Origin: a virus
Length of the DNA stretch: 64,000 nucleotides
Strand: one strand, 5' to 3'
Virus record (IMG/VR): IMGVR_UViG_3300046170_000524
Shown here: positions 9,517 through 57,359 of the stretch, piece by piece
How the letters are laid out: each line of letters opens with the position of its first letter
How positions within the stretch are numbered: position 1 is the first letter of the stretch
Position numbers and translations under genes: made by a program
The notes under the pieces: generated by a model
What the model was told of the DNA's origin: nothing
The model's input: only the letters and a program-made list of their open reading frames with translations
The model's database searches: none

Positions 9517-9884
9517 GGGCGTATACTGGATTCGATTTAAATTGAATTTGTATACTGCAAGTAGGAGTGTGTCTGGCTCCTAAATAAGACACAAATCATT
9601 ACATGGCAAAAATCTTAGTCGTGTTGAAAGCTTCGCTCCAAAAAGCGAAGTTTTCGCTTTGGCAGCGTAACACCTGTCACCTCGCAACTTTTGACGCAGA
9701 TAGAAAGATTGCGGGGTCATCAATCTGCAAAAACAGATAAAAGTTTTCTTGTATCACAAACTGAAAATAATTGAAACAAAAAGTTGGATGTTAATATCAT
9801 AACTTTAAAAAAAATTAACTAAACTTGTAGATGTATATCTCTGAAAATTTAAAGACGCGGGTTCAACTCCCGCTACGTCCACCA
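9517..9884 (+). ncRNA. ssrA: tmRNA
   Basis: Acceptor GGGCGTA/TACGTCC with G3:U, discriminator A plus CCA, T-arm GCGGG-TTCAACT-CCCGC; tag ORF 9605-9670 GKNLSRVESFAPKSEVFALAA*. Confidence 0.95.
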
Positions 9885-24678: not shown

Positions 24679-24771
24679 GGAGAGATGGCTGAGCTGGTTT
24701 AAGGCGGTGGTTTGCTAAACCATTGAAGGGATATTACCCTTCCGCAGGTTCGAATCCTGTTCTCTCCGCCA
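24679..24771 (+). tRNA. tRNA-Ser(GCT)
   Basis: Acceptor GGAGAGA/TCTCTCC, discriminator G plus CCA, anticodon loop TT-GCT-AA, long variable arm, T-loop TTCGAAT. Confidence 0.95.
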
Positions 24772-52910: not shown

Positions 52911-53076
52911 AAATTAATATTTTTCAACAACCGCACGAATGGACTAACGAAGAGATCGAACACCTCTACGATACAAATTGGAACATCACATTAGAACAAT
53001 TATCTCTACTAACAAATAAAACAATAGAAGAATTAAAAAATTTATTATTACCTGATTAAAAAAATAAAAAAAACTC

Positions 53077-53105
53077 TTGACAAATAATCAAATATAGAGT
53101 ATAAT
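53077..53105 (+). promoter_or_regulatory. sigma70-type promoter for a non-coding transcript
   Basis: TTGACA-17-TATAAT with no start codon or credible ORF before the terminator at 53406. Confidence 0.85.
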
Positions 53106-53175
53106 AAGGGCATAACAAATTGAGAAACAAACTCAAATAAATCAAATAATCGATCTTTAACATTTTTTAGAATTT

Positions 53176-53385
53176 GGAAGTTCTCGACGGAGACTTCCTG
53201 TGGGTGACTGAATAAGCTCGTCGTGAGCGAGCTAAGGTACGCGATTCTCTGTGGTGGAGTGCTGATGGGCAAATGTCTGAAGCAGGACAATCACCAATGT
53301 CTAATCGTTGTAGGAAGTAGGTAAACACGAAACTGCTGTTCACGCCGAAAACTTGAGGGTATACAGGAATCCCTCCCCACTTCAA
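53176..53385 (+). ncRNA. unassigned multi-stem structured RNA
   Basis: GC-rich island between promoter plus boxA-like site and terminator; several nested helices (see findings). Confidence 0.7.
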
Positions 53386-53405
53386 TTTCTTAATCATATC
53401 CCTCC

Positions 53406-53445
53406 AACCCTATCCAAGTAACCCTACTTGGGTAGGGTTTTTTTT
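53406..53445 (+). terminator. intrinsic terminator
   Basis: AACCCTATCCAAGTA-ACCC-TACTTGGGTAGGGTT then T-run; 15-bp stem with one G-U. Confidence 0.9.
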
Positions 53446-53484
53446 GGGGTTGACAAAGCGATCGATATCATTCATACTAGTATC

Positions 53485-53739
53485 ATGAAGACAATTAAAG
53501 ACATTCTTGCTAACTACGGGTACATTAACCAAGCTCAACTCGCAGAGATTAACGAGCACTTTCCTCACATGAGGGTAGTAATTAAATGGGGCGGATTGCC
53601 TCGCGATCGGGTACCTGCTCATCAAGCGGTGAAACTCATTAACCATATTGAATCAAAAAACATCGACTACTGCAGAGAAGTATTTCTTTGTGGTAAAGAT
53701 TGCGATAATCTTCGCAAAGCATTTCACATTGCACAATAA
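53485..53739 (+). CDS. hypothetical protein
   Basis: TTGACA(53450)-17-CATACT, ATG 6 nt later. Confidence 0.6.
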   Translation: MKTIKDILANYGYINQAQLAEINEHFPHMRVVIKWGGLPRDRVPAHQAVKLINHIESKNIDYCREVFLCGKDCDNLRKAFHIAQ

Positions 53740-56562: not shown

Positions 56563-57315
56563 ATGACAAAAGAAATTAATCTCTCCGTATGTGCAACCAA
56601 AGAATCTTCCTTTAAGGATGTTGAGAATGTAGTGACCCCTCAAGCCACTGACTCTTGGCGACCAATTGGTCACGCTGACCTTGTTAATCGAGTGCAAAAA
56701 CAAATGAAAGGTAATGGTTGGGAAATCGTTAAAACTTACCACTCTCTTCACCGCTTCGGTCAACGCTACTTCGGACTTTTTCATGTTAAGAATACAGGAG
56801 TTGACAACGATGAGCGTGGCACAATCGTTGGGCTTCGTAATTCTCACGACAAATGCTTTCCTGCAGGACTTTGCATGGGCAATGCTCCATTTGTTTGCTC
56901 AAACTTGATTTTTACCAATGAAGTTGTGCTTGCTCGTAGGCATACCAAGAACATCTTGAATGATCTTTCACAAGTAATCGCTCGCACTCTCGGCAAGATG
57001 ACTGAGACATGGGCAAGCGATGAGCAACGCATCAAAGCCTACAAAGAGCATGAACTCGGCAATGAGCAAGCTCATGATCTTGTCATCCGTGCTTACCAAA
57101 ACGGAGCTATTCCAAAAGCAAAGATTGCCGATGTTGTTGAGCAATGGCACAAGCCTGAACATGATGACTTTTCACCTCGCACCATGCACTCATTGTACAA
57201 TGGATTCACTCACATTCTAAAGGGTGGAATTACCGCCTTGCCAAATCGTTCACTTGCATTGCATGGTGTTCTTGACTCGGAAGTCGGTTTGACTTCTCAA
57301 GTTGCAGTTTCTTAA
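56563..57315 (+). CDS. DUF932 (DUF945-like) family protein
   Basis: WRPIGH..LV, RYFG, VGLRNSHDK.FPAGL..G..PFVCSNL.F. Confidence 0.75.
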   Translation: MTKEINLSVCATKESSFKDVENVVTPQATDSWRPIGHADLVNRVQKQMKGNGWEIVKTYHSLHRFGQRYFGLFHVKNTGVDNDERGTIVGLRNSHDKCFPAGLCMGNAPFVCSNLIFTNEVVLARRHTKNILNDLSQVIARTLGKMTETWASDEQRIKAYKEHELGNEQAHDLVIRAYQNGAIPKAKIADVVEQWHKPEHDDFSPRTMHSLYNGFTHILKGGITALPNRSLALHGVLDSEVGLTSQVAVS

Positions 57316-57359
57316 TCATAACCTAACCTAATCTAAAAATCATTAAAACTAATAATACT

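Follow-up and report, generated by a model that had tools for sequence, protein, structure and literature searches.

Weinberg et al. 2010 described the manA RNA (RF01745 in Rfam) as probably cis-regulatory and as a candidate riboswitch, found in marine metagenomes, T4-like cyanophages, and two gamma-proteobacteria, where it lies upstream of a mixed set of genes (PMC2864571). Its type in Rfam is Cis-reg, and no ligand was reported for it in the literature that we searched. In a preprint of July 2026, cryo-electron microscopy of five manA RNAs in vitro revealed octamers, decamers, and a 60-subunit icosahedral cage; these oligomers are built from pentamers and held by kissing loops, either L5-L7' plus L8-L9' or L5-L7' plus L3-L8' and a GNRA-receptor contact, and the family is still labeled there as putatively cis-regulatory (10.64898/2026.07.01.735769). 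The family has had the status of an orphan riboswitch candidate since 2010, and the choice of useful experiments depends on whether manA works in cis or as a free RNA. Here we describe a manA locus in a 64,000-nucleotide (nt) stretch of phage DNA, IMGVR_UViG_3300046170_000524 (hereafter the window, to whose positions all coordinates refer). It is probably a free-standing gene of a large, AT-rich, uncultured phage, the RNA of which acts in its own right and not as a leader.

The original prediction, made from the sequence alone, had placed at this locus an unannotated structured RNA, perhaps of a new class or a short relative of the large RNAs GOLLD and ROOL. Both of these are phage- or prophage-associated and are often located beside tRNA genes. 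They resemble manA in being structured RNAs, with no function assigned, whose copies assemble in vitro into closed homo-oligomers made of RNA only (PMC12286853), a behavior that for manA was likewise observed in vitro and with members other than the one described here. They differ from it in having no sequence or structure homology with the locus RNA, and manA is much shorter (210 nt); the preprint itself contrasts the sub-200-nt manA RNAs with the known RNA multimers, made of transcripts of several hundred nt (10.64898/2026.07.01.735769). The parallel with GOLLD and ROOL is, therefore, one of analogous behavior and not of membership.

Identity and structure of the RNA

The locus was scanned with all 4227 Rfam families. 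The core matched manA over the whole model (positions 1–192 of 192) with 86.1 bits (E = 1.5e-20), the gathering score being 55.2, and no other family was found at the locus, also when a cut-off of E <= 1 was applied around it. Membership in GOLLD, ROOL, or any other Rfam family was thereby ruled out for this core of only 210 nt. The related cores of the phage loci L230 and L234 scored 87.6 and 82.3 bits against the manA model. Judged by these scores, the RNA is a member of a catalogued family and its class is not new; the Rfam scan took away the proposed novelty and at the same time confirmed the RNA. The original prediction of a non-coding, structured phage RNA was upheld. The predicted whole transcript folded better than 100 of 100 shuffles (z = -3.25). 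The core has a G+C content of 50% in a genome of about 33%.

Relatives were collected from IMG/VR in two ways. Two scans for the conserved core gave 231 loci, in which the 3' end of the RNA was set by a closing-helix rule, while a pattern derived from helix P9 retrieved a clade related to the window, composed of 17 loci of at least 14 lineages on contigs of 39–214 kilobases (kb). A MAFFT alignment misplaced the window clade around P4-P5, and the clade was hence aligned and analyzed separately.

The features in common with catalogued manA RNAs, besides the full-length model match and the phage origin, are the conserved GUGACUGAAUAA...UAAGGU core, P1, the long-range closing helix, P3, the P4 junction with its GUGGUG and ACCA loops, and the GGGUAUACAGGAAUCCC hairpin. 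The columns of GUGACUGAAUAA and UAAGGU were invariant among 55 family sequences. In an alignment of six sequences from the clade and its outgroup, 91.5% of the cells were standard pairs, against 41–52% with slid partners, and 12 pairs were altered on both sides, in P1, P2, P3, P4, and P9. In the outgroup loci L215/L220, for example, P2 reads CUCCG/CGGAG, with three pairs changed on both sides, and throughout the family an exact 5-nt closing complement stands directly after a hairpin in 176 of 232 cores. By such comparative criteria, the RNA is real.

Most of the helices first drawn for the RNA, namely, P1, the GNRA-capped hairpin, P4, GAGGG/CCCTC, and the closing GTGG/CCAC, coincide with the Rfam manA consensus. 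So does the complementarity of TGGTG and CACCA, which corresponds to the loop-loop contact L5-L7. Two other pairings were not supported: GTGA/TCAC (53204-07 with 53340-43) clashes with the manA consensus, and AGTAG/CTGCT is broken in L072 and L234, a GAAC-UGNU-GUUC hairpin fitting the region instead.

Two loop-loop contacts covaried over the 55 family sequences, well above shuffled and slid controls: L5-L7 (UGGU/ACCA, UAGU/ACUA) and L8-L9 (CUGUA/UACAG, AUGUA/UACAU, CUUUA/UGAAG). Covariation by itself does not distinguish intramolecular from intermolecular contacts; the preprint assigns them as intermolecular (10.64898/2026.07.01.735769). The window RNA retains the L5-L7 complementarity (UGGUG/CACCA). 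The two-tier P8 hairpin, with an ACUGUAG loop complementary to the L9 loop, is absent from it, and this region aligns poorly to the manA model; compared with other manA RNAs, P8 is reduced here to a tetraloop hairpin, with a weak L8-L9 contact. P8 is a peripheral element, and the score lies above the threshold without it. The stretch of P6 at 53260-53284, GCUGAUGG...UCUGAAGC, resembles a C/D-box kink-turn (CUGAUGG...UCUGAAG); this resemblance is probably not meaningful, CUAAUGG being found at that place in L230.

A predicted closed transcription unit

The features of the locus are listed in Table 1. Scanning of the region 51.5–55.5 kb for promoter and terminator consensus placed the best promoter match and the only terminator-like site on either side of the manA core. 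The promoter, the leader hairpin TTGAG/CTCAA, the boxA-like site, the G+C-rich island, and the 15-base-pair (bp) terminator of the original prediction were all found where it had put them. The boundaries of the unit are given here as sequence signals.

Table 1. Features of the manA unit, of its RNA, and of the adjacent gene in the window
Feature	Position	Strand	Remark
A-rich, UP-element-like tract	53056..53076	+	Read directly from the sequence; also in relatives; putative UP element
Sigma-70 promoter TTGACA-17 nt-TATAAT	53077..53105	+	12/12 consensus match, best in 51.5–55.5 kb; start near 53112 predicted from spacing
Leader hairpin UUGAG-AAACAAA-CUCAA	53120..53136	+	boxB-like position, upstream of boxA
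boxA-like site GATCTTTAACA	53152..53162	+	Single match within the window
manA RNA core (RF01745), 210 nt	53176..53385	+	86.1 bits, model positions 1–192
P1	53176-98	+	Matches Rfam manA consensus
Long-range closing helix P2, GUGGG/CCCAC	53200-04 with 53376-80	+	Matches manA consensus
Conserved GUGACUGAAUAA	53204-15	+	Followed by UAAGGU at 53233-53238
P3, GNRA-capped hairpin	53216-32	+	Matches manA consensus
P4, GCGAUU/AAUCGU	53241-46 with 53303-08	+	Matches manA consensus
L5, GUGGUG	53251-56	+	
L7, UCACCA	53291-96	+	
P9, GAGGG/CCCUC	53355-75	+	Matches manA consensus
G-free, single-stranded 3' tail containing UCUUAAUCAU (53388-53397)	53386..53405	+	
Intrinsic terminator, 15-bp stem, 4-nt loop, T8	53406..53447 (hairpin 53406-53439)	+	Hairpin fold -22.9 kcal/mol; only terminator-like site in 51.5–55.5 kb
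Promoter of the next gene, TTGACA-17-CATACT	53450..53478	+	10/12 match; ends 6 nt before ATG
Next gene, 84 amino acids (aa), apparently leaderless	53485..53739	+	No Pfam or PHROG match

Catalogued manA RNAs differ from this one in their setting: here the core is preceded by a leader of about 64 nt resembling that of rrn operons, is followed by a terminator of its own, and has beside it a separately promoted gene, instead of lying in a 5' untranslated region (UTR). From the end of the closing helix (53380), a G-free linker of 25 nt leads to the terminator, and the next open reading frame (ORF) begins after 104 nt. The core is not positioned as the 5' UTR of a protein gene, the location behind the Cis-reg label; this is a feature of the context and not of the RNA.

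The boxA-like site begins 16 nt after the leader hairpin and agrees in 10 of 11 bases with GCUCUUUAACA, the boxA core of rrn operons. The leaders of rRNA operons have their signals in this order too, the hairpin first and boxA second, before a long RNA that is not translated, and boxB-boxA is bound there by NusB/NusE. The likeness extends to the strong promoter with an A-rich upstream tract, to the hairpin followed by the boxA-like GAUCUUUAACA, and to the long, untranslated, structured RNA, and it recurs in 14 lineages. The difference is that the leader belongs here to a small-RNA gene of a phage, with binding of Nus factors being putative and the boxA consensus one from the literature.

The gene behind the terminator has no Shine-Dalgarno sequence, and its layout, with the promoter directly before the ATG, is that of six other early genes in the window. 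When it was compared with L230, third codon positions accounted for 27 of the 52 nt differences, and the translations, counted over 84 residues and the stop, agreed at 67 of 85 positions; this substitution pattern marks it as a real gene.

Conservation in related phages

Between the window and L230, the flanking genes are about 80–83% identical. Identity was 93% in the promoter, 91% in the leader, 94% in the core, and 90% in the tail, against 80% in the neighboring protein gene and 62% in the terminator, whose stem is kept by compensatory changes. As judged from these identities, it is the unit, and not its surroundings, that is under selection, and this selection keeps the unit closed. The 53450 promoter is conserved in L230, and in most members of the clade the terminator is followed by a new promoter and a leaderless ATG.

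At the 3' side, 16 of the 17 clade loci have, after the core, a G-free, pyrimidine-rich tail starting with AUUU(U)C and then a hairpin and T run of unrelated sequence; in L247, no terminator was found in the stretch read. The terminators have C-rich 5' arms throughout the clade. The tail at 53386-53405 is 100% identical in the four closest relatives, and the 12-mer TTTCTTAATCAT is kept in the window and in L072, L226, L230, L243, L245, L246, and L253 despite differing terminators, other lineages having other pyrimidine-rich tails. The tail and the C-rich-armed terminator would form an insulating trailer, unable to compete with the C-rich 3' strands of the core, and the tail may also carry a site for endonucleolytic trimming.

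The 5' side is similarly kept. The promoter CTTGACAAATAA...TATAAT recurs in the clade lineages whose fetched DNA reaches that far. The leader hairpin UUGAG-loop-CUCAA is present in 13 of 14 lineages with varying loops, and L245 has the compensatory UUAAG/CUUAA; the boxA-like site is present in all 14, as GATCTTTAACA, GATCTTTTACA, or GTTCTTTAATA, and UUUGGA at the start of P1 is invariant in them. Among the collected IMG/VR loci, boxA-like sites stand upstream of five manA cores, against 0.3 expected. The locus adds to the family a manA member that is well conserved as a probable free-standing gene behind an rRNA-like leader. Together with its clade, it shows clearly, in a natural setting, how manA can form a closed transcription unit, with an rRNA-like leader and with a terminator that selection maintains although the terminator's own sequence drifts. 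The clade also supplies defined constructs for work on assembly and function, such as leader plus core plus tail, the RNA with or without the UCUUAAUCAU tail, and the tetraloop P8.

Some features of the leader vary among the relatives. Hairpin-forming insertions of 60–110 nt, variable among themselves, lie between boxA and P1 in L072 (1632-1697), L243, L244, L245, L248, and L250. They are missing from the window and from L230, so that this part of the leader tolerates large insertions. In L249, L250, and L252, the leader hairpin has a loop able to pair with the stretch just before boxA, by a pairing that differs from lineage to lineage (GGGC/GCCC, GGAU/AUCC, and GAGGC/GCCUC), which looks like a covarying pseudoknot that is absent from the window. 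A helix closing the leader on the tail, AUUGAGAAA with UUUCUUAAU (-6.8 kcal/mol), was rejected as a feature of the clade, as it surpassed shuffled tails only in the window and in L245 (0.005 each) and not in the 12 other lineages.

manA loci across the family

Contexts were counted in 79 non-redundant manA clusters with a definable 3' end. In 37 of them, a promoter matching 11–12 of 12 consensus positions precedes the RNA, its -10 box ending about 5 nt before P1. A terminator was found within 120 nt after the core in 11 clusters, against 1–2 of 79 in the antisense and upstream controls. Eleven clusters adjoin same-strand tRNA or tmRNA genes flush, and so do 59 of 232 cores; L219 has the order tRNA-manA-tRNA, and in L217 manA begins 10 nt after a tmRNA gene. 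In 43 clusters, an ORF of at least 50 aa starts within 60 nt of the 3' end, which is the cyanophage type of arrangement and is 5'-UTR-like. An RNA that occurs as a 5' end, as the filler of a gap between tRNA genes, or as a closed unit is more simply understood as a product of its own than as the sensor of a neighbor. Likewise, the cores flush with tRNA or tmRNA genes and the terminators after cores argue against an obligate role as leader. From their arrangement, the closed units and the copies between tRNA and tmRNA genes favor a free, probably abundant RNA product. For the members with the cyanophage layout, action in cis stays a live interpretation.

Direct neighborhood of manA and tmRNA was also seen in the phage loci L225 and L086. 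A element of about 40 nt, AGACCTAAGATGCAACT...GGGCAGATGGTCT, recurs just after the manA of cyanophages (L014, L016, L017, L023, L027, L044, and L048), and in L017 it sits between manA and a tRNA gene; no Rfam family matched it at gathering score in L016, L017, and L044. In many loci the core scored below the Rfam threshold, and the superfamily is accordingly broader than the curated model. RNAs below the threshold with GUGACUGAAUAA...UAAGGU were found in L001, L050, L122, L124, L127, L134, L138, L146, L147, and L228, some being at least 300 nt long and some lacking P1. A boxA leader and a terminator are present in L134 and L233 as well.

A probable free-standing RNA and its alternatives

For transcription, use of Nus factors, processing, oligomerization of the locus RNA, and its role in the cell, we infer the following course of events. 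Host RNA polymerase would initiate at the consensus sigma-70 promoter, near 53112, and transcribe the leader of about 64 nt, with the hairpin and then the boxA-like site. The leader probably recruits Nus antitermination factors, by which the untranslated transcript would be shielded from Rho and its folding helped. The 210-nt core would be made next, and the strong intrinsic terminator would end transcription, so that the primary RNA would measure about 335 nt. Trimming may take place at two AU-rich motifs that flank the core, namely, the invariant UUUGGA before it and AUUU(U)C after it. By analogy with other manA RNAs in vitro, the product is most likely a closed homo-oligomer assembled through loop-loop contacts, and the gene at 53485 would not be controlled by it. 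We hold it probable that the locus is a gene of this kind.

Some observations weigh against this interpretation. The start, the end, and the abundance of the transcript are predictions. The boxA match depends on a consensus from the literature, which may not be that of the host. As to the oligomer, the tetraloop hairpin GAAC-UGNU-GUUC that serves as P8 in the clade cuts L8-L9 to 3–4 bp at best, and oligomerization was reported in vitro only and for other members of the family. Elsewhere in the family, the 5'-UTR interpretation has a real basis in the arrangement of about half of the clusters. Finally, in the nascent fold, CUUGAGGGU (53351-59) can pair weakly with the 5' arm of the terminator.

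The last two points would suit a cis-acting switch or attenuator, in which formation of the terminator would depend on the manA fold, in response to a ligand or to the state of folding itself, and would thereby set the read-through to the gene at 53485 and to the early genes that follow. We regard this as unlikely, even though the Rfam type is Cis-reg and manA was rated a probable riboswitch by Weinberg et al. 2010 (PMC2864571). An intricate conserved fold with an intrinsic terminator behind it is indeed what a terminator-type riboswitch looks like, but in such an element the terminator strand overlaps or competes with an aptamer helix, in relatives too, and here fold and terminator are separated by the G-free linker; moreover, there is no known ligand and the genes to be controlled are not coherent, the downstream partners being heterogeneous across the family and including tRNA genes. 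For the pairing of CUUGAGGGU with ACCCU..CAAG of the terminator arm, which would displace P9, the energy is only about -10.6 kcal/mol, whereas the terminator folds at -22.9 kcal/mol. The pairing is present in the window and in L230, but neither it nor a conserved antiterminator was found in L234. The C-rich 5' arms of the clade terminators might base-pair with G-rich strands in P9 or P2, yet they are equally well explained as insulation of the C-rich 3' strands of the core. The downstream gene, for its part, does not depend on read-through: it is served by a conserved promoter of its own and, as its start is leaderless and no Shine-Dalgarno sequence precedes it, its translation from a read-through RNA would be poor.

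Another role, which could coexist with a free-standing RNA, is suggested by the tail, whose unpaired UCUUAAUCAU could pair with AUGAUUAAGA at the 5' end, start codon included, of leaderless early mRNAs and cause a block of translation or decay. The 10-mer ATGATTAAGA occurs eight times in the window, against 0.59 expected, and six of the copies form the initial 10 nt of genes that adjoin a promoter and are apparently leaderless; the copy in the tail is the perfect antisense (duplex, -10.6 kcal/mol), TTTCTTAATCAT is identical in eight clade members despite their different terminators, and a folded body with an unpaired seed and a terminator is a layout resembling that of bacterial small RNAs. 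Against it, tail and 10-mer do not covary: L248, L249, and L250 carry the 10-mer with other tails, six copies were counted in 37.5 kb of loci that have this tail and four in 72 kb of loci that lack it, the L230 homologue of the 54638 gene starts with ATGATTAGGG though the tail is unchanged, and in L234 the match of the tail to the leaderless starts of that locus is limited to 6 nt. In addition, there is a second, orphan antisense copy (57310-57319) that runs over the stop codon of a gene, the pairing is short and AU-rich, and the link was found post hoc. We therefore consider this role very improbable. Hardly any greater weight, and if anything slightly less, can be given to a combined form, in which an oligomer would display the G-free tail UUUCUUAAUCAU on each subunit and, by pairing with the AUGAUUAAGA 5' ends of the leaderless early mRNAs, act as an RNA-only trap that shuts early translation. 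Lowest of all, close to negligible, is the probability that the locus codes for a small protein on the minus strand, from an ORF of 76 aa (53397..53167) that starts with ATGATTAAGA. It is open in the window, L072, L226, and L230, and GGAGG precedes its ATG by 3 nt. In L230, however, the frame is shifted after residue 33 by a 2-nt indel, which leaves an unrelated remainder, no promoter lies upstream on the minus strand, few stop codons are expected in an island of 50% G+C within an AT-rich genome, and the stretch is accounted for by the plus-strand manA model. The same indel falls inside a plus-strand ORF of 33 aa (53223-53324), which was excluded. Neither strand, accordingly, encodes a conserved protein.

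The six genes that start with ATGATTAAGA lie on both strands between 54604 and 63333, each beginning 6 nt after a TTGACT-N16/17-CATAMT promoter, and the 10-mer was also seen in the related phages L230, L246, L248, and L253. The orphan antisense copy (TCTTAATCAT, plus strand) covers the stop codon of a DUF932 gene (56563-57315). It has the 13-mer TTTCTTAATCATA in common with the manA tail and is kept in L230, L072, and L226; the short minus-strand ORF that it would start is broken in L226.

The phage

The window is phage DNA. Its genes include those of a DNA ligase, of proteins resembling GP88 and L5 gp82, of glycosyltransferases, of UvdE, and of tail proteins of the lectin type, besides that of a tmRNA. 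The nearest relatives of the ligase are from phages of Alphaproteobacteria, with 36–43% identity, which is only a loose pointer. The carrier of manA is here not a T4-like cyanophage. The window has no close relative in culture: among 50,697 phage records, blastn returned no match to the core and, for the 4-kb neighborhood, only a match of 51 nt. The tmRNA is of the one-piece type and full length (RF00023, 121.8 bits; 9517-9884, plus strand), and it was not called by ARAGORN. The only tRNA gene in the window is that of a tRNA-Ser (GCU), at 24679-24771 on the plus strand.

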